The translations under genes and the position numbers were made by a program. Below the pieces are notes generated by a model. The model ran no database searches, had not been told where the DNA came from, and saw only the letters and a program-made list of their open reading frames with translations. This document shows positions 8,622 through 37,520 of a stretch of 37,520 bases of DNA, piece by piece (position 1 is the stretch's first letter; each line of letters opens with the position of its first letter). Source of the stretch: Deltaproteobacteria bacterium UBA796 (lineage in GTDB: Bacteria > Myxococcota_A > UBA796); assembly GCA_002296975.1 (NCBI GenBank), contig DBIS01000230.1, positions 1 through 37,520 of the forward strand, given 5' to 3'.

Positions 8622-8697
8622 TGGAGCGGGAGACGGGATTCGAACCCGCGACATCCAGCATGGCAAGCTGATGCTCTACCAACTGAGCTACTCCCGC
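8622..8697 (-). tRNA. tRNA-Gly (anticodon GCC), CCA encoded
   Basis: The reverse complement is GCGGGAGTAGCTCAGTTGGTAGAGCATCAGCTTGCCATGCTGGATGTCGCGGGTTCGAATCCCGTCTCCCGCTCCA. It folds as a cloverleaf with acceptor GCGGGAG/CTCCCGC, D-arm GCTC..GAGC, anticodon loop TTGCCAT and T-loop TTCGAAT. Confidence 0.95.
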
Positions 8698-24368: not shown

Positions 24369-25010
24369 CTATTTGATGGCCTTTCGGATTTCGAGGACGG
24401 TACCGATGGCGCCGGGGACTCCGCCCTTGACGAACAAGAGGTTGCGCTCAGTATCGATCTTGGCGACTTCGATGTTCTGAATGGTCACCCGTGCATTGCC
24501 GAGTTGCCCAGGCATTTTCTTACCCTTGAGAACGTGACCCGGGGTAAGCCGGCAACCGATTGAACCACCGTGACGGAAGAACTCGTGAGTACCGTGGGTC
24601 CGAATGAAGCCCTTGAAGTTGTACTTTTTCATGACGCCGCCGAAGCCGCGCCCCTTGGAGATACCCGATACGTCGACGAGCTCGCCCTCGGTAAATACAT
24701 CAGCGACAGCGACATCAGCGCCCACTTCGAAGCCGGCGGTGTCGGCCAAGCGAAATTCGCGGACGGTGGCCCGAGGCGTGACGCCAGCTTTCTGGAAGTT
24801 ACCGAGTTGTGCTTTGGTGAAGCCCTTCTCGCTCTTCTTGCCGTGGCCGAGTTGAACTGCACTGTAGCGGTCGTTGCCGTCAGCGGATTTGATTCCGAGA
24901 ACAACATTCGATGATGCGTCGAGTACGGTGACGGGAGTGACGACGCCACTCTCGGCGAATAAGCGGGTCATACCGATCTTTTTGGCCAAAAGGCCCTTCG
25001 TTGCTGCCAT
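24369..25010 (-). CDS. rplC: 50S ribosomal protein L3, encoded outside any S10-operon context
   Basis: 213 aa, full-length L3 with GLLAKKIGMTRLF, VSGISKGRGFGGVMKKYNF, HGGSIG..TPG..KGKKMPGQLG and NLLFVKGGVPGA. It has a strong RBS (GAGGTAAATC-ATG). No rpsJ lies upstream and no rplD lies downstream. Confidence 0.93.
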   Translation of the reverse strand: MAATKGLLAKKIGMTRLFAESGVVTPVTVLDASSNVVLGIKSADGNDRYSAVQLGHGKKSEKGFTKAQLGNFQKAGVTPRATVREFRLADTAGFEVGADVAVADVFTEGELVDVSGISKGRGFGGVMKKYNFKGFIRTHGTHEFFRHGGSIGCRLTPGHVLKGKKMPGQLGNARVTIQNIEVAKIDTERNLLFVKGGVPGAIGTVLEIRKAIK

Positions 25011-25108: not shown

Positions 25109-26293
25109 TTAACCGCCGCAGTACAGGGCTGATGCGCTCAGGGCGACCGGCCAATCGCTGGTGGCTGGGTCACTGCTGAGTATGTGGAGGATATTTTGGT
25201 CGCTCTCGGGGTAACTGGATTCCATGCATGGGGAGGTGGCGATATAGTCCACGCCGACCGTGGTGTTGGCGCCGGGCTCAAGGGTGAGAGGCCCTGCCCA
25301 TGAGAGCCAAAATTCGCCACAGGCGCTAATGATGTCGTTATTGAGAATCAGAGACGAGACCGTCAGGGGCATATCGCCGGCGTTGCTCAGGACCACCGCA
25401 CCATTGGCGGTGCAGCCCATGCCCGAAGGTGGAGACATGCTCAGGGTGTCTGAGCCGCCCGAAGCGGAGGACACCGCGAGCATCGGAGCGCAGACGGTGC
25501 AATCAGAGTCTGAGCCCTCGCCTGATAAGGGGATTAAAATCCCACCATCGGCAGTGTCGGCATCGATGTCGAGTACGGCATTGTAGCTCTGGATCTCGAA
25601 GGGGCTAAAACCCACTTGTACGGTCTGGGTTTGACCTGGGCGAATCACGATGGGCACTGAAAAATCCGCTTCAATCTGAAACACATATGTATTCGATGAG
25701 GTCAGGCGAGAAATCAACAGATCACCGGCGCCGGTGTTGGTCAACTGAAGCGCGCGCCAGGAGGTCTCTGCGATGGCGATCGGGCCGAAATCCAAGGACT
25801 CAGGAAATGGGGTGATGGTTCCGGCGGTGGGGCTGGTGCCTGAATCGGTGCCTGTGCCCTCTTCTACACCCGAGCCTTTGAGTTGAAGTTCGGCATATCC
25901 GACCTCACCGGCGATACCGATGCTCAGTTTTCCTGAATATGGACCCAGAGACGGTGGTGCGAAAGTAACGCTCCCAGTCGCGATCGTACCTGAGGACAAC
26001 TCCATGGGCAGAACGAGGTCCGAGCCCAGGGAAAAGCCGGTCCCTTCAATAAATGCCGTAGAGATGGTGATTGCATCTGCGCTGTCATTATCGATAATCA
26101 GCGTGTCGGTCATTTCAGAGCCGAGTGCCACCGAGCCGAACTCAAAGGTGGCAGGGAGGATCTGAAGTCCGCCAAAGGCGATAACGTCGTCACTGGTGTT
26201 TGAGCCACCAGAGTCAACAGCATCCTTTTGAGGCAGTGGGCCGCCACATGCAAAGAGGAGGCAGCTTGCGATGATGTTCAGATGATGGCGCAT
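25109..26293 (-). CDS. Lipoprotein with three Ig-like (choice-of-anchor D / ASH-type) repeats
   Basis: 394 aa starting MRHHLNIIASCLLFAC (lipobox). Three modules of about 110 aa each begin FEFGSVALGSEMTDTLIIDNDSADAITI, LDFGPIAIAETSWRALQLTNTGAGDLLI and CTANGAVVLSNAGDMPLTVSSL. Several Cys pairs sit in the last module. It lies 57 nt downstream of the GltH-like gene. Confidence 0.65.
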   Translation of the reverse strand: MRHHLNIIASCLLFACGGPLPQKDAVDSGGSNTSDDVIAFGGLQILPATFEFGSVALGSEMTDTLIIDNDSADAITISTAFIEGTGFSLGSDLVLPMELSSGTIATGSVTFAPPSLGPYSGKLSIGIAGEVGYAELQLKGSGVEEGTGTDSGTSPTAGTITPFPESLDFGPIAIAETSWRALQLTNTGAGDLLISRLTSSNTYVFQIEADFSVPIVIRPGQTQTVQVGFSPFEIQSYNAVLDIDADTADGGILIPLSGEGSDSDCTVCAPMLAVSSASGGSDTLSMSPPSGMGCTANGAVVLSNAGDMPLTVSSLILNNDIISACGEFWLSWAGPLTLEPGANTTVGVDYIATSPCMESSYPESDQNILHILSSDPATSDWPVALSASALYCGG

Positions 26294-26350: not shown

Positions 26351-27064
26351 TCAAAAAGTGTACTTGATGGTGGCTGTAGCTGACAGGCCGAAGTCGAACC
26401 CGACGGCATATAGCGCGTCGATATCTGCACCCACTGAAAAGTGTGACATCTTGGTGTAGTACTCAAAAGTTGGGCCACCCATGACCACCGGGTGCGGCTC
26501 TTCGTGGACCGTAGGGACATACCCCCACTCTTTGCCCGTGACATCCTCTTCGTAGGTCTGGCGGTCCATCAAGAGCGGCGTGAACATCATCCCGCCACCG
26601 ACGCGCATACCAATGCCGAAACGCCGTGTTGGGTAGACGCTGAATTCGTAGAGCCCGACGATGGTGTAGCTTCGAATATCGCCCTGAATACAGTTTTGCT
26701 TTTCTACACAACCGGCGAGCGTTTGCTCATCAAAAGCGGTGCCATTATTGATGCCTTGGAAGAAGCTGACCTCCCATGCCATCGACATATCTTCTTGGTC
26801 GTAAAAGTCTTGGCCCACCGCCAAGGCGATGGATGTGCCCGGCTGGAGCCACTCAGCATGGGGTCCGAAGGAAAGGCCCACGCCGACATTTGTCTTGGCG
26901 TAGGTACCCTTGATGATTTCGCGGACTGCGCGCTTTACTTTTGGCTTTTCGCCCCGCTCCTCCGCATCATATTCTTCATAGCTCTGCGCCATGGCGTCGG
27001 TGGTGCCGAAGAAGGCGGTAAGGCTGAGGAGTGCAACTGTTTTCATGGTGCTCATGTGCGTCAA
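26351..27064 (-). CDS. Outer-membrane beta-barrel protein (GltH/NfsH-like by position)
   Basis: Signal peptide MKTVALLSLTAFFGTTDAMA, alternating hydrophobic strands and a C-terminal ...ATIKYTF with an aromatic terminus. The true start is probably the ATG at 27055 or 27046, because the track start is TTG. Confidence 0.65.
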   Translation of the reverse strand: MTHMSTMKTVALLSLTAFFGTTDAMAQSYEEYDAEERGEKPKVKRAVREIIKGTYAKTNVGVGLSFGPHAEWLQPGTSIALAVGQDFYDQEDMSMAWEVSFFQGINNGTAFDEQTLAGCVEKQNCIQGDIRSYTIVGLYEFSVYPTRRFGIGMRVGGGMMFTPLLMDRQTYEEDVTGKEWGYVPTVHEEPHPVVMGGPTFEYYTKMSHFSVGADIDALYAVGFDFGLSATATIKYTF

Positions 27065-27103
27065 ATCCGTGGCTTCGCGTCATTAACCCGTTGGGTCAGC
27101 AGA

Positions 27104-29065
27104 TTAGGATGGCTGGAAGATGAACGGGTAGGAGACGATAACGATACCGCCGCCCTTGGGCTCGGGGAACTTGAAGCGCATAAACCGGCTGTTGATGCAC
27201 CCTTCCACGGCTTTATTATTCATGGTGGTGGTCTTGGTAGATGCCCTGGACACAGAGCCGGTCTTGGAGATAACGAATTTGACCGTGACCTTTCCGCCCA
27301 AGGATGGGTCTTTAGGCAGCTCACGCTGGTAGCAATACCGGATCTGGTTCATATGCTTCTTGATGACTGCATCGATGAGTGACTTGTCGAGGGCGCCGAG
27401 GATGATGGGGTCTCCACCGATCCGGCCGATGCCACCTTCGCCCTTCGCACCGAAGTTACCGCCGCCTGAGCCATAGCCTGAAGCGCCTGACCCTCTGCCC
27501 TTTGTGCCGAGTCCGCCGAGGCCGGCTGCTGTACCGCCGCCGCCGAGACCTGAACCACGGGCCCCAAGGCCGCCAGAGCCAATCTGTGTACCCTTGGCAC
27601 CGATGAGACCACCAATGCCGCCGGCGAGATCAGAACTGAGGTTCGCAGATCCGAAGACACCGTCGAGTTCAGCACCATCGCGGAGGGCACCGAGCACCCC
27701 TGCATTTTCAGCGACCTCTGTGTCGAGTTTCTTCTTTTGGAGTTCGACTTTATTGCCCTTGGCCTTCTCCATTTTGGCGTCTTTCTTGCCGACTTTGCCT
27801 TCTTCCTTCTTGGCCTTCGCACCTTCACCTGCGTCAGGATTGGCGTCTGGTTTGTTTTTCTCTTTTTGCGGTTCTGGTTCAGGTTGCTGAAGCAGCATCT
27901 CCACAAAACGGTCTGGGACCTCCAAAATCTCACTCTCGCTTGGGGGCGGTGAGTTGAGGAAGATGACCATAATCATGGCCAGCAAGAAGCACATAAAGGA
28001 CATCATGCCCAAGAAGATGGGGTCCTTTTGTCCACCGCCGCCCTTGGCTACCTTGGCGCCAGGAGCAACCATTTGGCTAAAAAAGATGACATGGCCCAAG
28101 TCGGCCACAACACGGGTGTCGTCGGTGAGCGGGACCTGATAAGCGCCAGGACCGTTCGGGCTTGCCTTGCCAGACTCAATCAAGTCTTGGAAGGTGTGGC
28201 GCTGATCGCCGATGTCCACGAATCCGGACCATTTGTCGGACATATTGAACAAAAAGTGGTCGCCGGCACTCTCGAACATGACGAAATCATCATGGGGGAG
28301 GTCTTCGGGGGGGACGTAAAAGTCATTGCGCCGCTCTTCTGATGCCTCAGACAAAGTCGGGGCAAGTATCCATGCAACTTTGGCGAAGCCGGGCGGGACC
28401 CAACCCATGGGAAGCCCGACAAAGCGCCATCGGTAGCCGGTTGATGAGCCAACAGGGATGTTCGGGCCGCCAGTGGGATAATGCTTGACGTCCATTACGG
28501 AGTCGGCCCAAATCTCAGCGACCTCGAGGATTTTGGCTTTTTTACGGTCGACGCCAGCGTTGCTGCTGGCTGTGCCTGAGCGCATAACGAAGGCCATGAC
28601 GTCTTCGCCGGAGTCGACGATCGACTCGCCGCCTTCGTCTTCACCGGCATTACGGTCGGGGACTTGGTCGGTCCGCTCGACATCTTCCTCGGGCCAGTCA
28701 GCTTGGGCTGCGGCCGCGGCACTTGCACCTGTGGCCTTGGCGGCGGGGAGGATGGCTAAAGCGATCGTGATCGGACCAATGGTGATGGTGTCACCGTTGG
28801 CGAGGTCCACACTGCCGTCGACGGCAGTGCCGTTTACCTTGGAGCCTGTGTCGCTTCCAAGGTCTAGCAGCTGAACTTGGCCGTCGTCTTTGACGTTGAC
28901 CACAGCGTGGAGGTCTGCGAGCGCCTCGTCGTCGATGCGCAGCATTGCAGCTGGACCACGGCCGATGGTGACGCTCTCCGCAGAAATTTCCTCGCTGCGT
29001 AGGGGAACATCTCCGTTGGAGATATCAAAAGACAGCCGAATGTTGCCGTTGGCTTCGTTCGCCAT
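27104..29065 (-). CDS. FHA-domain / single-TM / TonB-C-like (AgmX/PglI C-terminal domain) protein, GltG/NfsG-like
   Basis: 653 aa. It has an N-terminal FHA domain (TIGRG..L.IDD..L.DLHAVV...LLDLGS..GSKVNG..V..L.NGD.I.IG) and a TM helix at about aa 349-370. Next come a Pro/Glu/Lys spacer (aa ~395-446) and a Gly-rich tract (aa ~481-551). The C-terminal domain reads LDKSLIDAVIKKHMNQIRYCYQRE...VSYPFIF. Confidence 0.8.
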   Translation of the reverse strand: MANEANGNIRLSFDISNGDVPLRSEEISAESVTIGRGPAAMLRIDDEALADLHAVVNVKDDGQVQLLDLGSDTGSKVNGTAVDGSVDLANGDTITIGPITIALAILPAAKATGASAAAAAQADWPEEDVERTDQVPDRNAGEDEGGESIVDSGEDVMAFVMRSGTASSNAGVDRKKAKILEVAEIWADSVMDVKHYPTGGPNIPVGSSTGYRWRFVGLPMGWVPPGFAKVAWILAPTLSEASEERRNDFYVPPEDLPHDDFVMFESAGDHFLFNMSDKWSGFVDIGDQRHTFQDLIESGKASPNGPGAYQVPLTDDTRVVADLGHVIFFSQMVAPGAKVAKGGGGQKDPIFLGMMSFMCFLLAMIMVIFLNSPPPSESEILEVPDRFVEMLLQQPEPEPQKEKNKPDANPDAGEGAKAKKEEGKVGKKDAKMEKAKGNKVELQKKKLDTEVAENAGVLGALRDGAELDGVFGSANLSSDLAGGIGGLIGAKGTQIGSGGLGARGSGLGGGGTAAGLGGLGTKGRGSGASGYGSGGGNFGAKGEGGIGRIGGDPIILGALDKSLIDAVIKKHMNQIRYCYQRELPKDPSLGGKVTVKFVISKTGSVSRASTKTTTMNNKAVEGCINSRFMRFKFPEPKGGGIVIVSYPFIFQPS

Positions 29066-29126
29066 GATGCGTATTCCTTCGATTCATCCACGGGGTATTG
29101 ACCCGTGTTGGGGGATTCCTGCGGGT

Positions 29127-29381
29127 TTATTTGACTTCGTCGACGGATTTGTCCATCTCATCATCGAAGTCTTTCCGAATTTGAATGAGTGGGTTGAAGT
29201 TGGCGCGCTTGCGGTCGAGGAGCAATGCCCCTTGTGGCTTCACCAATTCTCCATCCACTTCAACCCCATCAAAGTCAATCTCGGTACGGGACTTGTAGAT
29301 AACTTTAGGCTCCTCACCGTCCTGCGCGAAGGCAGGAAGAGAGAGGAATGCAGCGGTTAACATCAGGCATCGTCGTGTCAT
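29127..29381 (-). CDS. Small secreted protein, 84 aa (GltF/NfsF-like by position and size)
   Basis: The track ORF was trimmed to the ATG at 29379..29381, preceded by GGAGAAATTC. It has a canonical signal peptide, MTRRCLMLTAAFLSLPAFA-QDGEE. The upstream 57 codons are Trp/Pro-rich and look non-coding. Confidence 0.6.
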   Translation of the reverse strand: MTRRCLMLTAAFLSLPAFAQDGEEPKVIYKSRTEIDFDGVEVDGELVKPQGALLLDRKRANFNPLIQIRKDFDDEMDKSVDEVK

Positions 29382-29644
29382 GAATTTCTCCGAGGGGGTC
29401 GGCAGCTTTAGAGAACAAGTCTCGGGGGCTACCGCTGTGGGCTGTGTTGCCCAGGGGGTGATGATAAAAACCATGACCCACCATGTCCAGTTTGCCTTCT
29501 TAGGGCCGTTTGGACAACGAAAGATGGGCAAAGAGGCTGTCAAAAGGACCATGTAAAAAATGTTTCTTGATTTTATGGGATGAAAGCGGCCGTTCTACCG
29601 CCACTTAAAGCGGACGGGTCTTTGGTGCTTGTGGGGGTAAAACG

Positions 29645-29685
29645 AAAGCCGCCGAGGATGGCTTACACCCTCGGCGGCTTTTTTT
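29645..29685. terminator. Strong hairpin terminator inside the Glt/Nfs-like cluster, between the E-like and F-like genes
   Basis: A 13-bp perfect stem pairs AAAGCCGCCGAGG (29645..29657) with CCTCGGCGGCTTT (29669..29681) around an 11-nt loop. On the plus strand it is followed by T7. On the minus strand it is followed by UUUCGUUUU and sits 24 nt after the E-like stop. Confidence 0.7.
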
Positions 29686-29708
29686 AATCTGAACGATCGT
29701 GACGGGAG

Positions 29709-31190
29709 CTATTCTGTGGCTTCGGCCGGTGCCGCTTCAGCCGGTGCCGCCTCAGCAGGTGCCGCTTCAGCAGGTGCCGCAGCAGCTTTTGCCGAAAACT
29801 CGTCGTCGCAGAATGCGGTGTTGCTTTGCAGTTGAGGCAAGAGGTCGTCCATAAAGGTCATGACGTCTGCGGCCATGTCAATCTCTTCGGCCTCGACGAC
29901 CATTTGGGCCTGCTCTAGAACCATTTGCCCCATGTCGATGCCGCCCATCTCAATCATCAGTTCGCAACTGCCATATTTGGTCAACAGCGCATCCAATGAG
30001 GCGACCTTAACTTTGAGGTCCTCGAAGACTTTTCTCTGGCGCTTCTTCCGTTCTTCGGCTTCTTGCTTGCGGCGATTCGCCTCTGCCTTTTTGGCAGTCT
30101 CAGCATCGATGGCTTTTTGCACCAATGCTTTCCGTTCGAAGACGGGGTGGCCGGGGTCGATTTGGCCTTGAAAGGCGGCAACGTAGGCGTCGAGGTACTT
30201 GGATGCCTTCTTGAAGTTTTTGGTGTACTTTCGGTGCAGGGTTGCTGCATTAAAGTAGGCGGCCTCATTTTTGGGATCTGCAGCGATGACTTCGTCGTAG
30301 AGCTTGCCCGCGGCTTCGAAGTCCTTTTTACCTCTTAAGCTGACGGCCAGGCCAAGTTTACCCGCGATGTTTCCGGGCTCTGAGCTCGCGACAGCGGAGA
30401 AGGACTTGAAGCCCAACTCATAATCGCCAGAGTCGATGGCCAAATATCCCAAGTTAAGATTGGCGGGCACATTCGCGGGGTCTAGCTTGGTGGCGGTCTT
30501 GAATTCACTGATGGCGGCTTGCTTGTCGCCCATCACCAAAAAGGTGACACCAATATTGTTGTAGATTCCAGAGTCTCCCTTCGCGAGGGTCTTGGCCTTT
30601 TCAGCACAGAGTTGGCTCATCTCGAGCTTGCCCATCTTGAAGTAAATCCGGGAGAGGTTTCGGTATGCGCCAACATTAGTGTTGTCTGCACGCAGTATGA
30701 CCCGGATATTATCGAGTGCCTCTTCGTACGCCTGGGCGCCTGTCAGTGCCTCGACCAAATTGTTTCGGACGGCGATGTCGTCTGGCGTCTTCTGAAGATA
30801 ATCTTTATAAAGTTCGGCGGCCTCGGCACCTTTGCCCAACTCGGTGAGCACGATGCCCAGGCTGAATAGTGCGTTGCTGTAGCCAGGGCTCAGGTTGAGC
30901 GCTGTACGGTAATGCTGGGCAGCTTTTGCTTTGAACCCTTGCTGTTCAGCTGTCCACCCTGCGTTGTACTGGGCCTTTGCACGCCCAGGATCGGCGGTGA
31001 TGGATGCCTCGAACATGGTGTATGCCGCACCAAAATCTGCAGCGCTACCCTCGGGTGCGCTTTGGAGAAGTCGGACTCCTTCATTGAAGGTGTCCACGGG
31101 GCTGGTGAGGTCGGGCCCCTTTTTAGGGCAGCCCATGAGCGAGGCTGCAAGGACCAAGGCGATTGATGTGTTGCTGAACATGGTTTGCAT
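29709..31190 (-). CDS. TPR-repeat lipoprotein (GltE/AglT / NfsE-like)
   Basis: 493 aa with lipobox ASLMGC and multiple TPR-like repeats. It also has a basic coiled segment (AETAKKAEANRRKQEAEERKKRQRK) and a C-terminal (PAEAA)x4 tail. It begins 4 nt after the D-like gene stop. Confidence 0.7.
   Translation of the reverse strand: MQTMFSNTSIALVLAASLMGCPKKGPDLTSPVDTFNEGVRLLQSAPEGSAADFGAAYTMFEASITADPGRAKAQYNAGWTAEQQGFKAKAAQHYRTALNLSPGYSNALFSLGIVLTELGKGAEAAELYKDYLQKTPDDIAVRNNLVEALTGAQAYEEALDNIRVILRADNTNVGAYRNLSRIYFKMGKLEMSQLCAEKAKTLAKGDSGIYNNIGVTFLVMGDKQAAISEFKTATKLDPANVPANLNLGYLAIDSGDYELGFKSFSAVASSEPGNIAGKLGLAVSLRGKKDFEAAGKLYDEVIAADPKNEAAYFNAATLHRKYTKNFKKASKYLDAYVAAFQGQIDPGHPVFERKALVQKAIDAETAKKAEANRRKQEAEERKKRQRKVFEDLKVKVASLDALLTKYGSCELMIEMGGIDMGQMVLEQAQMVVEAEEIDMAADVMTFMDDLLPQLQSNTAFCDDEFSAKAAAAPAEAAPAEAAPAEAAPAEATE
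29718..29774 (-). repeat. 15-nt in-frame tandem repeat, about 3.8 copies, encoding (PAEAA)n
   Basis: The plus strand reads ggc ttc ggc cgg tgc cgc ttc agc cgg tgc cgc ctc agc agg tgc cgc ttc agc agg. This encodes APAEAAPAEAAPAEAAPAEA at the extreme C-terminus of the E-like lipoprotein. Confidence 0.85.
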
Positions 31191-31194
31191 CCTC

Positions 31195-34100
31195 TTACAG
31201 GTTGGGCTCGAAGGTGGATTCGACGACCGCGGTCGATGTGAATCGCGGTGTGATCAGGTCTTCTGAGAGCCCTGGGTAGTCGTGAGGTCTAAGAACACCG
31301 AGCGCCCGAACAGCGAGGGCGGTGTTCTTGTTGTAGAGGTTGAGCTCGTAGGACTTACCCAAGGCTTGGGAGTAGGCTTGGACCGCCTTCTCCTCGTTGG
31401 GGTATGCCTTGTCCTCTAGACCCATCCGGTAAATTTCTACCTGTTCCTCGGTGAGTGAAGGCGGGGCGTAGGCACTGCGCAAGGTCTGAGCGAGGTTTTC
31501 ATAAAGCCCACCAAGGTCGACCAATGCTGCGAGCCCGTATTCACCGGCCCCGAGTCGAATGATGTCGATGTACGAGGCCTCGATGGCCTGGACGGCCTTG
31601 GCCTTGGCGATGAGTTGCCCCGTGAGGATTTCAGTCTCCTTCTTTGTGTTGACCGGTCGATCTGGACCGCTGATGTCCAAGGCCAACGCAGCCTCCAGTT
31701 TGGGTTTGGCGAGCTTCATCATGACTTGCGCTGCAAACTCGGTCGCCAGGCCCATTTCAGCCCCGCTGGCCTTCACGGCATCATACTCGGACACCAGTTT
31801 TTTCCAATGAGACTGAGCTGAGCGCTTCTGTTCTTCAAGCGCCAGCCCATATTGGAGCTTGGCGAAGAAAATTTGCTCCGTGGTTTTACCCTCGGGTGAG
31901 GAAGCATAGCCCTGGTAGATTTTTGCAGCTTCAGCCCACTTGCCGTGTTTCTCCAAAATCTTACCGATGGTGAGCTTCACATCAGAGATACGCTCGTCCT
32001 TGGGGTAGGTTTTGATGAAGAGTTGGTAGTTTTTGATGGCCTGGGTGGGGTGGCCCATGGCCGCCTGAAAAAGGGCGGCGGAGTAGATGGCCTCTTTGGA
32101 GCTACTGTGCTTGGTGTCCAAACCAAATAGCTGTTCATAATAGGACGCAGCGCTCGCAAAGTCGGCGATGTTTTCGTAGTCGAAGCCCAAGTTTGCGATG
32201 GTGTCTTTATAATATTTGCTTTTGGGGAAGTCCGTGACCAAGGTCAGGCGGGTGTCCATCGCCTGTTGGGGCATCTTTTCCTGGTGGTAGTAAACAGCGG
32301 CGTTGTTGAGCGCTGTGTCGGCCACTTCGGACTCGGGGAACTCTGCATAGAAGGCCATGAATGAGCCGGCTGCAGCGACGCTATTTTTGTCTTTCCCAAG
32401 GTTGATTTCGATCAGTTTGAAAGAGGCACGTTCATAAACATTGTATACGGACTTCTTGAAGGTGGCCCGGCCCAGTCCCTGTTGGTCATAAAAAGCCTTC
32501 GCGACCTCTTTGAGGTTTTGCCAGTCTTCGACAAGGTTGAAGGAGTCGAGGATAAGGTTGGCTGCTTGTTCAGCCTCTTTCGACTTGGGGTTCATGTTGA
32601 TGACTGTCCGGAAACGGTCAGATGCCTCTTTGAACTGGTTCTTGTGGTACAGCAAGTAGGCCGATTTATAGATGACGTTTCGTGTATTTTTGTCGTCAGG
32701 AAAAATGCGGGACCATTGGTCGCATGCTGCCAATGACTTGCTCTCCCAGTCGACCAATTCCATGCGTTGAGTCTTGGTCTCAGGTTTTGGAATGCGGCCA
32801 GCCCGTTTTTCGCTTGCAACCATCTTGTCGGCAGCGAATATGGCGGACTCTGCACAGAAGCGTGAGTGTTTGCCCTTGGGGTCGATGCTGACCACCTTCA
32901 TGTATTGGACATAGGCTTGGTCATACTTTTTAAGCTTGTAAAGCAGCTCGCCAAAGGCGTAGCGCATATCGTAGCTGTATTTGGATGTCGGGAACTCCGC
33001 GATGTAGACAGTGTATGCCCGCTCAGCGAGGCTGTAGGACTCCCTGGCGCTGCGCCCTGTGCCTAGTTTTTTCGCATCGCTGTGGTAGTTGATGGCCACA
33101 GTCCGAAGGCTCTTTTCGATGTATCGGGTGGCCTCATTGATGGCGTCTTGGTCTGCGGAGTTGGCCCGGGCCCAAGCGGAGCTCTTGCCGTAGTTGTCCA
33201 ATAAGCGCTTGATTTCGTTGAGCGTGTCCTTTTTCCGGCCAATTTTCTGATAGGCAAGGATGATCTCGTTTTGGTAATCTGGAGCCTTCGGGCTTTGGGG
33301 GTCTTCTGCAACTAGCCGCCGATAGGTTTGGATGCATTGCTCGAATTTACCTTGTTCGAAATACATGCTCGCCAGGCGCGAGAGCATTTTACGAATGAGG
33401 TCGGTCTTGCCAAGCTTCGTGAAGTATCCATAGGCTTCGTCCATCTCGCCAGCGTCTGCGAAGAAGCGAACCAGGTCCTTGAGTGCCTCGTCTTGGAGGG
33501 TGAGTTGGGATTTTTTCCCGCCATTTTGCTGGGCAGCCATAGAGAAGGCGACAACCGACTTCATGGTGTCGATTCCCTTGCCGAACTCGCCAACATTATA
33601 ATAGCACCACGCCAATTTATATAGGGCAAAGGCGTATTTTGTTGAGTTCTTGTACTTGGTGGCCTTTTGGTAGGCAAGCAGCGCCTTGTAGGCGTTGTTC
33701 TTGTCGAAATAGTACTCACCAATCATGACATAGGCGTCTGCGGTGTACCGGCTTTGTGGGTAGCTTCGGACCAGCTTGGTGAACTCCTTGACTGCGTCAT
33801 CAGCCCGGTCAGTATCTTGAAGCGCGGAGGCCAAATAGAATGTGGCCTCGTCTGCCCGGCGGTATTGAGGGTAGCTTCGCAGGATGTTTCGGTACAATTT
33901 GATGGACTTGTTTTGCCAGACCATTGAGCCGTCATTGTCGGCGATCATATTTTCTGTGGAGCAGCCTGGGGTGTTGAAACAATTGTCGAACTGGGTTCGA
34001 AAGGCGCCCATTTCGTTGAGGTAAACGTCTCGACCTTCTTCAAAAAAGAGGTCGGCCAGACGAAGGAGCATCTCTGCCTTCTGCTCGCCCCGAGGCGGGT

Positions 34101-34323
34101 TATTTCGCAGGAGATCTTTTAGGAAGTTGATGGACTCATGGCGTTTTTCTCTCGCTTTTTGGCGATAGAATTCAGATTGTGTCTCGACACCGACATCGTC
34201 GAGCTTGAGTACCCGACGTTTGTCATCATCTTTGGCCCATGCTGAACCAATGGTGAGGGCGAACAGGGCCACGATTGTAGGTATACGCATCATTTTGCTT
34301 CTCTCTCGTATGGGTGGGGGCAT
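31195..34323 (-). CDS. Large TPR-rich secreted/periplasmic protein (GltD/AgmU / NfsD-like)
   Basis: 1042 aa with TPR-like helical repeats throughout (Tyr/Lys/Ala-rich A-Y-x-x-A patterns). The likely true start is ATGATG at 34293/34290, giving signal peptide MMRIPTIVALFALTIGSAWA. Confidence 0.7.
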   Translation of the reverse strand: MPPPIRERSKMMRIPTIVALFALTIGSAWAKDDDKRRVLKLDDVGVETQSEFYRQKAREKRHESINFLKDLLRNNPPRGEQKAEMLLRLADLFFEEGRDVYLNEMGAFRTQFDNCFNTPGCSTENMIADNDGSMVWQNKSIKLYRNILRSYPQYRRADEATFYLASALQDTDRADDAVKEFTKLVRSYPQSRYTADAYVMIGEYYFDKNNAYKALLAYQKATKYKNSTKYAFALYKLAWCYYNVGEFGKGIDTMKSVVAFSMAAQQNGGKKSQLTLQDEALKDLVRFFADAGEMDEAYGYFTKLGKTDLIRKMLSRLASMYFEQGKFEQCIQTYRRLVAEDPQSPKAPDYQNEIILAYQKIGRKKDTLNEIKRLLDNYGKSSAWARANSADQDAINEATRYIEKSLRTVAINYHSDAKKLGTGRSARESYSLAERAYTVYIAEFPTSKYSYDMRYAFGELLYKLKKYDQAYVQYMKVVSIDPKGKHSRFCAESAIFAADKMVASEKRAGRIPKPETKTQRMELVDWESKSLAACDQWSRIFPDDKNTRNVIYKSAYLLYHKNQFKEASDRFRTVINMNPKSKEAEQAANLILDSFNLVEDWQNLKEVAKAFYDQQGLGRATFKKSVYNVYERASFKLIEINLGKDKNSVAAAGSFMAFYAEFPESEVADTALNNAAVYYHQEKMPQQAMDTRLTLVTDFPKSKYYKDTIANLGFDYENIADFASAASYYEQLFGLDTKHSSSKEAIYSAALFQAAMGHPTQAIKNYQLFIKTYPKDERISDVKLTIGKILEKHGKWAEAAKIYQGYASSPEGKTTEQIFFAKLQYGLALEEQKRSAQSHWKKLVSEYDAVKASGAEMGLATEFAAQVMMKLAKPKLEAALALDISGPDRPVNTKKETEILTGQLIAKAKAVQAIEASYIDIIRLGAGEYGLAALVDLGGLYENLAQTLRSAYAPPSLTEEQVEIYRMGLEDKAYPNEEKAVQAYSQALGKSYELNLYNKNTALAVRALGVLRPHDYPGLSEDLITPRFTSTAVVESTFEPNL

Positions 34324-34337
34324 GCCCCAAAAAAGCT

Positions 34338-36224
34338 CTACTTGCAGGAACCCTGCTCGGTGTAGTGGTAGTAGCCGAGTTCATCTCGCCAGAACTCGCC
34401 GTTGAATGGCCAGTAAATAAAGTCCGTCGCTGTTGCGAAGTCCAAGTCGACTTGGCCTGAAAGGTTTGCCAAATCGGGGTTTTGGAATTTGTATTGGTAG
34501 TCAACCCGCTGGGCATCGATGACCTCAAAGCGGACCATCTCAGAGTTTGAAAGCAGGTCCTGCAGGTTGTTGGCCCACTGTGCCATTTCGGCAAGCATAA
34601 AGCGGCCGGCGCGTCGCTTGAGTTTGGACCTGTCCTTTTCGATGACCTTCTTCAGGAGCGCCCCAACGGTGTCTCTCCACTCGGCCTTCTGACGGTTGAT
34701 GAGGTCGATCTCGTCATCGAGTAGGTCGAGGTGGGAGACGATGCCCGCGATGTCTCGGTTACGAAGTAGCTTTGTGAAGAAGCGTGTCGGGATTTGTGTC
34801 TCGACTGCGGAAGGACCAAAATAGGTATCCCAAGCTTGTTCGGCCATTTTGAGCTGCTCTTTGGATGCATAGCCCTTCACAAAGGTCTTCAACTCTTGTT
34901 GGATTGGGCGGGTTTCACCCTCGAAACCGAGTAAAATCCGGTTGACCTCTTTGTATTCACACAAGTTGAAGAAGGTGAGCGCCCGAAGATAGTCGACCTC
35001 TGGGATGAAATCCTGAGTGTTAAAGAAGGGGCTTCGGATGGTTAGCAACTGACCCAGCGTGTGGTTCAAGTTGTTCTGCATAAAGTTGGCCCAAGCACCG
35101 GAGAAAAGAGATTCTGGCCAGGTGGATGAGTCGTGGTCGACGAGATCAAAATATTTTGATGCGTTGTCAAAGCGCTCGATTTTGTAGTACATCCGCCCAA
35201 TGTTCATGAGGGCCATGTTGACCAAACTCTTTTGCGCTGCGAGTTCTGCCTTGTTTTTGGCCTCTAATGGGTGGCGTACCACATCCATAAAGGCACGCTT
35301 AGCGCTCTTATATTTGGCCTGCTTGTAGTAGGTGATGGCCTCGAGGTAGCGGGCCTGTCTGTACAAATTGGACTTGCTGGAGATTTGGCCGAAGAACTTC
35401 CGCGCCTCATTGAGGTCGCTGCCTGCGAAGCTGCGAAGGCCCATCAAATAGAACATCTTGTTTTTTGAGCCCCGAGGATAGGACTCGACAGGGACCTTGG
35501 GCGCGATCTTGAGGATCTCAGTTTCGTCACCGGTAAATCGGGCCATCCGCACCAATTTTGGCAGGGCGTACTTGAAGTAAGCGGTGTTAGGGCCCTTGTT
35601 GACCACCTTTAAAAAGAAGTACTGCGCGGTGTGGTACATCTCGAGCTGTTCTAAGCTCCGCGCGAGGTAATATTTGATTTGCGTGTCTTGGTCAGGATAG
35701 TTTCCGCTCCTGAGCAAGTCGTAAAATCGTAAAGATGCGCTGAGGGTCTTTTTGTTCCGCATCAAGCGGACGGCCTCTTTGACGGCGTCTGGGCTTGCTG
35801 CGGCCGATTCGGGGCTGCCGCCTGCGCTGTCGTCTTCGAGTGTACGGACTGTTGAGGCCCGAGCGCCGATCAGATCAGAGGCGGCGTCGATACCGCTTGG
35901 GGCCGCGGTGGGGGCATCGGTGTAAACAGGAACGGCTGGCTGAGCGGCGCCGGTCATGGTGCGGGCAATGGCCAAAACTGCAGCAGGTGCGCCGGCTTGG
36001 GTCAAGCAGCTGATATCTGAGGCGGTGTACTGTGCACCGGAGTCGCGGACTGCGCTGGCCACGATGTTAGCGGGCACGCCGGCGGCGAGCATGCTGGCCA
36101 CTTCTTGGCATGGGATGGCCTGAGCGGCGGTGGAGAACAGGGCGAGGGCGATGGCTGTGATGGGAGCGAGTGCGCGCTTCATGAGCTTGGGACCTCGGGG
36201 TGAAGTGTGTTGAACTGACTTCAT
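34338..36224 (-). CDS. TPR-rich periplasmic protein (GltC/NfsC-like)
   Basis: 628 aa. The signal peptide MKRALAPITAIALALFSTAAQA fits an alternative start at 36182. A small Cys-pair N-terminal module and an Ala/Pro linker precede a helical-repeat body. Confidence 0.65.
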   Translation of the reverse strand: MKSVQHTSPRGPKLMKRALAPITAIALALFSTAAQAIPCQEVASMLAAGVPANIVASAVRDSGAQYTASDISCLTQAGAPAAVLAIARTMTGAAQPAVPVYTDAPTAAPSGIDAASDLIGARASTVRTLEDDSAGGSPESAAASPDAVKEAVRLMRNKKTLSASLRFYDLLRSGNYPDQDTQIKYYLARSLEQLEMYHTAQYFFLKVVNKGPNTAYFKYALPKLVRMARFTGDETEILKIAPKVPVESYPRGSKNKMFYLMGLRSFAGSDLNEARKFFGQISSKSNLYRQARYLEAITYYKQAKYKSAKRAFMDVVRHPLEAKNKAELAAQKSLVNMALMNIGRMYYKIERFDNASKYFDLVDHDSSTWPESLFSGAWANFMQNNLNHTLGQLLTIRSPFFNTQDFIPEVDYLRALTFFNLCEYKEVNRILLGFEGETRPIQQELKTFVKGYASKEQLKMAEQAWDTYFGPSAVETQIPTRFFTKLLRNRDIAGIVSHLDLLDDEIDLINRQKAEWRDTVGALLKKVIEKDRSKLKRRAGRFMLAEMAQWANNLQDLLSNSEMVRFEVIDAQRVDYQYKFQNPDLANLSGQVDLDFATATDFIYWPFNGEFWRDELGYYHYTEQGSCK

Positions 36225-36236
36225 GTCGTCACCACC

Positions 36237-37130
36237 CTATTTGATGGTAGGGAAGAAGATGGACACAGCGGCCTGGACGATGAAGTTGTTTTTCATTTCC
36301 AGTTGCGTTGCGTTGACGGTTTCGATGTAAACCATCGAGCGGCCCTCGAGTCGGAATGCCATATTCTCGTTGAATATGACCCGTGCTCCCCCGCCAAAGT
36401 TTGTGGTGGGGTGTACCTGCTCACTGGTTTTCGCTGCGAGGGTCTTTCCGTCGGCGTCATCCAAGCACTCGAGGCATTCGCTGGTTTGAGTGAAGCCCAT
36501 GCCGAAAGATGTGTAAATGTCGAAGTTGATGATGTTTCCGCCCATCACTGCGACCTTCCCGTAAATCGGGGAAAACAACAAACTGGCTGAGCTGAAGTAG
36601 GTCAGGCGCGAGATGTCTGGGCTGACGGAGTTCTTGTCTCGAAGCTGCTTTGTGATTGCGGTGTAGTCGGCTTCACCGAGATCGGGCGAGAAATCAAAGC
36701 TCAATTCCACCGCAAAGATCTCGGTGACATTGTAGTTAATGCCAGACCCAACGATGTAGCGCTTCAAAAATGGGTCGTTGGCCACAAAGGCAACGTGGGG
36801 CGATGCCTCCCAGCGGCCTTTCTTGAAGAAGCTTTTGCGCTGGATGGTTTTAATGGTCCGGTCTTTAGCGCCGTCATCTTCTTGGATGAGCGGGCTATCG
36901 TCGCGGGCACCGATGGTGCTGCCGGTGGAGCCAGATGCAAAATCTTGGCCTTCTTGGGCGGCGGATTGCTCGGTGTCATCTGAGGGTCCGCCCAAGATGT
37001 CTCCGAGGTCGTCGTCCTCAGCGCTGGAATCGTCTTGGGCGATGCCATCGTGAGTTGATGTGTCGTTGGCCCAAGCCAAACCGCCAAGGTTGGCAGAGAG
37101 CAGGACGAGGAAAGTGCGAACAGTCAGCAT
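36237..37130 (-). CDS. Outer-membrane beta-barrel protein (GltA/GltB / NfsA/NfsB family-like)
   Basis: 297 aa with signal peptide MLTVRTFLVLLSANLGGLAWA and an acidic disordered segment of about 70 aa. The barrel begins QRKSFFKKGRWEASPHVAFVANDPF. It is a paralogue of the next gene: GGNIINFDIYTSFGMGF aligns with GESVLNFDAYGTLGMGM, and NNFIVQAAVSIFFP aligns with NNFVATVGLSFFIP. Confidence 0.7.
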   Translation of the reverse strand: MLTVRTFLVLLSANLGGLAWANDTSTHDGIAQDDSSAEDDDLGDILGGPSDDTEQSAAQEGQDFASGSTGSTIGARDDSPLIQEDDGAKDRTIKTIQRKSFFKKGRWEASPHVAFVANDPFLKRYIVGSGINYNVTEIFAVELSFDFSPDLGEADYTAITKQLRDKNSVSPDISRLTYFSSASLLFSPIYGKVAVMGGNIINFDIYTSFGMGFTQTSECLECLDDADGKTLAAKTSEQVHPTTNFGGGARVIFNENMAFRLEGRSMVYIETVNATQLEMKNNFIVQAAVSIFFPTIK

Positions 37131-37149
37131 GGAATTGTCCCCCTTTGGC

Positions 37150-37520
37150 CTAAAAGTTGTACATGCGTTTCTTCATCTCGGGGATGAAGAAACTAAGACC
37201 GACGGTGGCCACAAAGTTGTTGTAAAGGCGTTGGCCATCGGGTGGATTTTCAGGGTCGTATGCGGGTTCGTTGGCAATATAAAAATAGTTGCGAGCGTCC
37301 AACTTGAGGGCCATGGATTGGTTTAGGAAAAAGTTGAAGCCGATGCCGATGGTGGGCGCGATGACAACCTTGTCTGGGTTGGGGGCGGGGTTGAGCTTGA
37401 GGTCTTTATCAGGGTCGTCTGTGTTCTCGACCGCCAAGTAGGACTTCAAGGTGAGCATGCCCATGCCGAGGGTGCCATAGGCGTCAAAGTTCAGTACCGA
37501 TTCGCCAATCAAGTTAATTT
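37150..37520 (-). CDS. Outer-membrane beta-barrel protein, C-terminal part (GltA/GltB / NfsA/NfsB family-like); N-terminus lies beyond the window
   Basis: The frame stays open to the window edge. It ends ...FFIPEMKKRMYNF with an aromatic terminus and is clearly paralogous to 36237..37130. Confidence 0.7.
   Translation of the reverse strand, partial: INLIGESVLNFDAYGTLGMGMLTLKSYLAVENTDDPDKDLKLNPAPNPDKVVIAPTIGIGFNFFLNQSMALKLDARNYFYIANEPAYDPENPPDGQRLYNNFVATVGLSFFIPEMKKRMYNF

Follow-up and report, generated by a model that had tools for sequence, protein, structure and literature searches.

A probable eight-gene Glt/Nfs-family transducer cluster in an uncultured lineage of Myxococcota

Does an undivided run of genes in an uncultured member of the Myxococcota encode a trans-envelope machine of the type formed by the Glt and Nfs proteins of Myxococcus xanthus, and what would such a machine be used for? 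The question is raised by contig DBIS01000230.1 of assembly GCA_002296975.1 (Deltaproteobacteria bacterium UBA796), whose 37,520 nucleotides (nt) are called the window below. On its minus strand, from 37518 to 26351, eight open reading frames (ORFs) follow each other in the reading order A-B-C-D-E-F-G-H. With a probability of about three in four, this region is a complete eight-gene Glt/Nfs-family transducer set that would build an envelope-spanning complex, as judged from profile matches, alignments and gene order. A first-pass annotation, made from the DNA letters alone, had already described eight minus-strand genes in this order, and the ORFs agree with it.

Protein families were assigned using NCBIfam profile hidden Markov models with curated cut-offs; Pfam profiles were used besides. 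Seven of the eight proteins have a Glt/Nfs-family profile match, and for C, E, F, G and H the best profile match is a specific Glt model. H, B and full-length A score above the curated cut-offs. The part of A in the window reaches 58.9 bits on TIGR04565, the myxobacterial outer-membrane barrel domain (cut-off 60), and the full-length protein from contig L001 obtains 100.1 bits. Full-length A comprises 273 amino acids (aa) including a signal peptide, as found on L001, L002 and L004, other public contigs with identical proteins (L004 from GCA_002425435.1). B yields 95.4 bits on the same model and, in addition, a weak Pfam match to OMP_b-brl/OmpA_membrane. A and B are paralogues with 29% identity over 223 aa (blastp), and by family match both are predicted outer-membrane barrels. 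In B, the signal peptide is followed by an N-terminal extension of about 70 aa, which is acidic and poorly conserved, and then by the barrel domain; in 49 orthologues, conservation begins at the motif TIQRKxFxKxxRxE.

C, D and E form the tetratricopeptide repeat (TPR) part of the set. C matches the GltC model NF033756 with 248.8 bits (E = 1e-73; equivalog cut-off 450), residues 79-627 covering model positions 60-619 of 622. Its start was placed to give 628 aa, whereas public gene calls use an internal ATG and yield 614 aa. Because no GltD-named NCBIfam model matched D in the search of the window proteins, D was compared directly with GltD of Myxococcus stipitatus (1194 aa). The latter belongs to the true Myxococcus G1 cluster, which was reached via named GltG proteins (locus L098, gltD-E-F-G-H followed by a gltI of about 4100 aa). 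D is 26.6% identical to this GltD over 1071 aa (E = 7e-107, blastp). Several YbgF/BamD-type TPR matches were also found in D, with 139.8 bits on the tol_pal_ybgF model (cut-off 90.1), summed over seven repeated TPR stretches. E carries the lipobox LMG/C and reaches 150.8 bits on the GltE model NF033758, with almost complete coverage (E = 5e-44; cut-off 225). It is 26.6% identical to M. stipitatus GltE over 319 aa (E = 8e-26, blastp). The C terminus of E (29709-29790, minus strand) consists of a short tandem APAEA repeat tail, AAAAPAEAAPAEAAPAEAAPAEATE, outside this alignment, which covers E residues 35-351.

F, G and H complete the set. F matches the CglF model NF033764 over the full length with 56.4 bits (E = 2e-15; cut-off 90); CglF is identical to GltF (PMC4488436). 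Blastp with M. stipitatus GltF yields 37% identity over 89 aa (E = 7e-11). The sequence GGAG lies 8 nt 5' of the F start codon ATG. G reaches 344.9 bits on the GltG model NF033760, again over the full length (cut-off 650), and its comparison with M. stipitatus GltG yields E = 4e-33 (blastp). It combines a cytoplasmic FHA domain at 32-97 (Pfam FHA, 46.8 bits), a single transmembrane helix at about 350-368, a long, flexible linker that is Lys/Glu-rich and further on Gly-rich, and a TonB-C-like tail. This tail (residues 559-651) scores 110.5 bits on NF033768, the AgmX/PglI C-terminal domain (cut-off 40), and G also has a weak match to the TonB C-terminal model. H matches the whole CglE model NF033755 (1-172 of 172) with 102.6 bits (cut-off 70); GltH was formerly known as CglE/AgmV (PMC9946355). 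Blastp aligns H only weakly with its M. stipitatus counterpart GltH (43% over 46 aa, E = 4e-4). For H, a TTG start would result in 237 aa and an ATG start in 234 aa.

The proteins from A to H comprise 273/297/628/1042/493/84/653/237 aa and thus closely track GltA-H of M. xanthus, with 256/275/673/1191/471/89/640/209 aa (Luciano et al., PMC3169522). A search of solved structures with the proteins of the locus returned only generic FHA and TPR matches. Two paralogous outer-membrane barrels, three TPR proteins, an 84-aa secreted protein, an FHA/transmembrane/TonB-C-like protein with an AgmX/PglI tail and a third barrel encoded by the last gene had all been named in the first-pass annotation. Each assignment is borne out by the scores above.

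How is the cluster organized? The intergenic gaps from A to H measure 19, 12, 14, 4, 327, 61 and 39 nt, so that the earlier description of gaps of 4-61 nt interrupted by one terminator-containing gap holds. The 327-nt gap between E and F opens with a GC-rich hairpin (GCCGCCGAGG...CCTCGGCGGC) followed by the U tract UUUCGUUUU. RNA folding yields -32.1 kcal/mol and a z-score of -5.7 compared to shuffled sequences, none of 200 shuffles folding as well. A consensus terminator scan did not call the E-F hairpin, and the reason is not evident from its fold. In 58 related loci, the best hairpin after the E stop codon has a median of -27 kcal/mol versus -21 kcal/mol for an intragenic control, and many of these loci have a U tract 3' of it. 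The hairpin is predicted to split the cluster into two units, A-E and F-H. As a hairpin after E recurs in many relatives, often together with a U tract, this division looks like a conserved feature.

Is the cluster peculiar to this organism? A scan of species-representative genomes provided 80 related loci, all from metagenome-assembled genomes (MAGs). Wherever the contig reaches, the order A-B-C-D-E-F-G-H is kept (80/80), and since the same order is found in 80 independent related loci, the cluster is more than a chance grouping. The exact A-H set is present in 29 loci; the remainder add only F- or G-like duplicates. The common arrangement comprises an upstream lipoprotein gene, A-H, a gene for a choice-of-anchor-D lipoprotein and rplC, and it is retained even where G identity has fallen to about 50%. 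A gene neighbourhood as constant as this speaks for vertical transmission of the locus in the clade.

Some relatives have a second F-like gene, and extra copies are located before F in L043, L044, L046, L048, L050 and L071. In others, an FHA-less G-like paralogue is found beside G, and an extra G-like paralogue follows G in L052, L056, L059, L060, L063, L066, L067, L072, L074-L076 and L078. The FHA-less paralogue retains the transmembrane region and the AgmX/PglI tail; its tail domain is of a kind that GltJ shares, and the GltJ model gives the paralogue only a weak score. The window contains neither duplicate. The close relatives of G number in the hundreds and come exclusively from metagenomes or MAGs; those with a name are called 'AgmX/PglI C-terminal domain-containing protein [Myxococcota bacterium]'. 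Judging by the names of the MAGs and samples, the loci derive from lake water, sea water, an anoxic spring and activated sludge, among others. Myxococcota or Deltaproteobacteria bacterium is the label of most of the 80 loci, while several labels are plainly wrong. Many cluster-bearing MAGs have implausible organism names, 'Klebsiella pneumoniae', 'Bifidobacterium breve', 'uncultured Enterobacterales' and 'Cognaticolwellia sp.' among them (odd labels in L007, L017-L019, L025, L035, L039-L042, L048, L053, L054, L057, L058, L062, L074, L078, L079 and L085). These records look like mislabelled submissions.

How close is the set to Glt and Nfs proper? G is 30-33% identical to named GltG proteins from Myxococcus, Corallococcus and Anaeromyxobacteraceae, and a representative close to true GltG obtains 599 bits on the GltG model compared to 345 for window G. 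An exhaustive search assigned 1271 representatives to the G family at E <= 1e-30. In neighbour-joining trees, which are rough (bootstrap 76 for the subclade of the window, 100 for Myxococcaceae GltG), G falls into a large clade apart from named GltG. Because the scores of C, E, F and G do not reach the equivalog cut-offs and G is only about 31% identical to GltG and branches apart, the cluster represents, by these scores and trees, a deep, separate lineage that is orthologous to neither Glt nor Nfs. Nfs is reported to be the closest paralogue of Glt and the product of a recent duplication (Luciano et al., PMC3169522; Wartel et al., PMC3858216), which was placed in a terminal myxobacterial branch (PMC3858216). 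Since Nfs is closest to Glt, while window G is far from GltG, orthology of the window set to NfsA-H is unlikely, and the cluster would be an outgroup to Glt and Nfs alike. The first-pass annotation had proposed a phylogenetic placement of the D-, E- and G-like proteins, which was made here for G. Its cautious wording, an 'Nfs-like or ancestral core version' with an output left open, proves apt in view of the subthreshold Glt scores and the position of G.

Several observations weigh against a Glt/Nfs-type transducer with a Glt-like function. C, E, F and G all miss their equivalog cut-offs, and G lies in another clade than named GltG; for both reasons, the function of Glt is not simply transferable. 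Nothing resembling GltI (a TPR protein of about 4100 aa), GltJ or GltK was found in the window, as had been stated earlier, or on L001/L002, and CglB homologues were likewise not seen locally. Many of the samples are lake or sea water, where there is no obvious need for gliding. M. xanthus itself has two Glt-like paralogous clusters, G4 and G5, whose function is unknown and which do not affect motility (PMC3169522).

Two further points on this side concern the motor. TolQ/TolR-like genes are absent within +/-10 kb of the cluster in 79 of the 80 related loci, and none of the AglRQS-like gene triplets examined (see below) originates from the samples of the window (JGI 3300003514, ERZ9265xx, ERZ1740923, GCA_002425435.1). 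In the window, phmmer found no MotA/ExbB/TolQ or ExbD/TolR ORF, in agreement with the first-pass annotation. The sequence past 37520, where this annotation had suggested looking for a motor, did not provide one: none of the genes called in the next 10 kb belongs to the Pfam families MotA_ExbB or ExbD, and a lipoprotein and a TonB-dependent receptor are encoded there. E. coli TolQ and TolR used as phmmer queries had no match on L001/L002. In M. xanthus, too, AglRQS is encoded elsewhere than nfsA-H, and AglR binds both GltG and NfsG (PMC3858216). Since motor genes are missing from the window, from the adjoining 10 kb and from the surroundings of 79 of 80 related loci, the motor presumably acts in trans in this organism, as it does for Glt and Nfs.

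The sole exception among the 80 loci is found in a Myxococcota MAG (L086, 3151-4515), where a TolQ-like and a TolR-like gene lie directly 3' of the G-like gene. The TolQ-like protein served as a query, and the loci of four homologues were examined. All four, on metagenomic and MAG contigs, contain stand-alone triplets of one ExbB gene (216-225 aa) and two ExbD genes (169-174 and 187-195 aa), which count in favour of a motor in trans. By gene content, this corresponds to the architecture of M. xanthus AglR/Q/S, with 245/162/194 aa (PMC3169522). In L088, L090, L092 and L094, such triplets are followed by a gene for a conserved 333-342-aa protein without a Pfam family, which could be an unrecognized motor-associated component.

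What would the machine do? The best-supported model, considered probable by analogy with Myxococcus, from which coupling and output are taken over, is a TolA/TonB-like force transducer driven by the proton motive force. A proton-driven TolQ/TolR-like motor of the AglRQS type, encoded elsewhere in the genome, would bind G in the inner membrane. G would span the periplasm in the manner of TolA or TonB and, together with the TPR scaffolds C, D and E and with F, pass force to an outer-membrane platform of A, B and H. This platform would in turn carry an adhesin or a surface-bound cargo along the cell. Every bacterium that has AglRQS as well as GltA-G was proposed by Luciano et al. to be a potential glider (PMC3169522). 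For this reason, surface translocation, i.e. gliding on particles or surfaces, is the first choice for the output, with a likelihood somewhat short of even. The second candidate is an Nfs-like function in which a secreted polysaccharide is handled.

In this second case, the machine would transport or compact a polysaccharide of a capsule, cyst or spore coat while the cell itself is not moved, comparable to Agl-Nfs and the Exo polymer. The nfs genes have the same architecture, one contiguous A-H cluster without paralogues of I, J and K and with the motor elsewhere (PMC3858216), and glycosyltransferase genes are found on L001, a few kb upstream, as well as at other places in the window. However, the recent duplication reported to have generated Nfs lies in a terminal branch and, as the position of G in the trees is remote from the clade of named GltG proteins, the window set is not an Nfs orthologue. 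Moreover, Wza/Wzc-type export genes are not adjacent, and sporulation is not known in this lineage. An Nfs-like role is rather improbable. Slightly less probable still is a Glt-like paralogue with a non-motility function in the envelope, such as integrity, transport of outer-membrane proteins or lipids, or prey contact, comparable to G4/G5 or the gammaproteobacterial 'core complex'. G4/G5 mutants have no motility defect, the core complex is present in non-gliders (PMC3169522), the G family has very many and diverse members, and window proteins stay below the Glt equivalog cut-offs. This is countered by H, which exceeds the CglE/GltH cut-off, and by the full outer-membrane module (A, B, F, H) within the cluster, which Luciano et al. 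associated with the transition of the core complex into a motility machine.

An accessory set of Tol-Pal, Bam or TonB, to which the tol_pal_ybgF and BamD matches of D, the weak TonB C-terminal match of G and a TonB-dependent receptor with an N-terminal TonB_C domain upstream on L001 could point, is highly improbable, since specific Glt models score best for C, E, F, G and H, the YbgF score of D is a sum over TPR repeats in a protein that aligns with GltD over the full length, and the receptor is not syntenic in relatives. Both the Tol-Pal/Bam reading of D and the receptor as a part of the system were rejected on these grounds. E. coli TolQ and TolR found no match in the window by phmmer; TolB and Pal were not searched by sequence, and all ORFs of at least 140 aa in the window are either explained otherwise or have no such Pfam match. 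The Glt/Nfs-family transducer remains the preferred reading. Its features are compiled in Table 1.

Table 1. Genes and signals of the A-H cluster and its downstream neighbour in the window
Feature	Position	Strand	Remark
A, GltA/NfsA-position outer-membrane beta-barrel (predicted)	37150..37518	-	C-terminal 122 aa only in window
B, GltB/NfsB-position outer-membrane beta-barrel (predicted)	36237..37130	-	297 aa
C, GltC/NfsC-like secreted TPR-containing protein	34338..36224	-	628 aa
D, GltD/NfsD (AgmU)-like secreted TPR-rich scaffold	31195..34323	-	1042 aa
E, GltE/NfsE (AglT)-like TPR lipoprotein	29709..31190	-	493 aa
Intrinsic-terminator-like hairpin and U tract	29635..29690	-	directly 3' of gltE-like stop codon
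F, GltF/CglF/NfsF-like small secreted protein	29127..29381	-	84 aa, signal peptide
G, GltG/NfsG (PglI)-like inner-membrane protein	27104..29065	-	653 aa
H, GltH/CglE/NfsH-like outer-membrane protein	26351..27064	-	237 aa, signal peptide
Choice-of-anchor D lipoprotein, possible accessory gene	25109..26293	-	394 aa

The choice-of-anchor-D gene has the same orientation as H and follows it after 57 nt. The encoded lipoprotein reaches 86.8 bits on NF012200 and has choice-of-anchor D/HYDIN-ASH Ig-like domains (Pfam). The gene follows H in most related loci and is absent in many others, e.g. L011, L029, L031, L043 and L044. Its product may act together with the machine at the cell surface or simply be a syntenic neighbour. 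The next gene, rplC (24369-25010, minus strand), encodes a bona fide ribosomal protein L3 (TIGR03625, 242 bits, cut-off 143). It begins 98 nt downstream of the choice-of-anchor-D gene without an obvious terminator between them and stands alone, outside any S10-type ribosomal operon. At its 3' end it shares a bidirectional terminator with the convergent guaB. The adjacency of H or the choice-of-anchor-D gene to rplC is kept across the whole clade.

On the other side of the cluster, just past the end of the window (L001, 7557-8501, plus strand), a lipoprotein is encoded directly upstream of A on the same strand; it comprises about 290-314 aa and occurs in about 30 related loci. It has no Pfam or NCBIfam match, including the NCBIfam gliding-protein models. 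In M. xanthus, the lipoprotein gene gltK belongs to the same G2 cluster as gltB, gltA and gltC. The receptor mentioned above (L001, 4891-7560, plus strand), about 1.6 kb upstream of A in the species of the window, is an 889-aa outer-membrane protein in which an N-terminal TonB_C domain is fused to CarboxypepD_reg and TonB-dependent-receptor barrel regions; it resembles the N terminus of MxcH. The sole RNA gene that Rfam and tRNA scans found in the window is tRNA-Gly(GCC) at 8622-8697 (minus strand).

What is new? Contiguous A-H clusters (nfs), grouped G1/G2 homologues in Anaeromyxobacter and Glt-like sets outside Myxococcus have been published (PMC3169522, PMC3858216), and several of the window proteins are already named by NCBI models. 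In a recent preprint, uncultured classes of Myxococcota were surveyed for A-motility homologues. What is added here is limited to the record of a divergent eight-gene version, strongly syntenic and including a GltH-like gene, in a clade of uncultured aquatic bacteria; a new mechanism is not revealed. GltH has been regarded as a late acquisition (Luciano et al., 2011). The GltH-like gene in the window cluster suggests that GltH may have originated earlier than these authors thought. More tentatively, and with considerable doubt, the undivided A-H cluster may preserve the ancestral Glt/Nfs layout in a deep-branching uncultured clade of marine and freshwater Myxococcota. If true, the outer-membrane platform including GltH would be older than both the Glt/Nfs duplication and the split into G1 and G2 in Myxococcus. 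Myxobacteria of the water column and sediment would then glide on particles or perform motor-driven surface transport with an eight-protein transducer devoid of GltI, GltJ and GltK. Irrespective of this, the cluster, conserved as a single compact locus in a wide clade, provides a natural 'minimal' version, a C, D, E, G core plus an A, B, F, H module, of a machine that was split and enlarged in the model organism, and it bears on the time at which GltH and the outer-membrane platform arose. Furthermore, genome surveys in which A-motility genes are scored as absent for want of close M. xanthus homologues should be read with caution.

How does the cluster compare with known systems? With Tol-Pal and TonB-ExbBD it shares the logic of an inner-membrane TolA/TonB-like protein with a TonB-C-like tail, YbgF-like TPR proteins and outer-membrane barrels, and a proton channel of the TolQR/ExbBD type presumably energizes it, too. 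In contrast to these systems, G has an FHA domain, the family matches point specifically to Glt, and TolQ/TolR are not encoded locally. Bdellovibrio possesses four sets of expanded core complexes, of which Bd0828-0838 was placed phylogenetically by its agl components (PMC3169522). According to the published description, A, B and F are added there, as in the window, to a C/D/E/G core; Bdellovibrio lacks GltH, whereas the window has a GltH-like gene and no local motor. Anaeromyxobacter is described as having its G1 and G2 homologues grouped on the chromosome (PMC3169522), in which it resembles the window.

The Glt system of Myxococcus (gltA-K, clusters G1 and G2) shares homologues of GltA-H with matching sizes and domains, and its motor is encoded elsewhere. 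It is split into gltK-B-A-C and gltD-E-F-G-H-I-J, whereas the window cluster is contiguous and divided after E. Unlike the Myxococcus loci L097 and L098, the window has no gltI, gltJ or gltK beside the cluster, and C, E, F and G score below the Glt equivalog cut-offs. Compared to the Nfs complex of M. xanthus (nfsA-H, MXAN_3371-3378), the window differs in the low identity of its G to Myxococcus GltG, in the terminator-like hairpin between E and F and in having no known link to sporulation or an exo locus. In its layout, as published, Nfs corresponds to the window: eight genes form one cluster from A to H, the domain content agrees gene by gene, paralogues of GltI, GltJ and GltK are missing, and the motor is provided from outside the cluster (PMC3858216).

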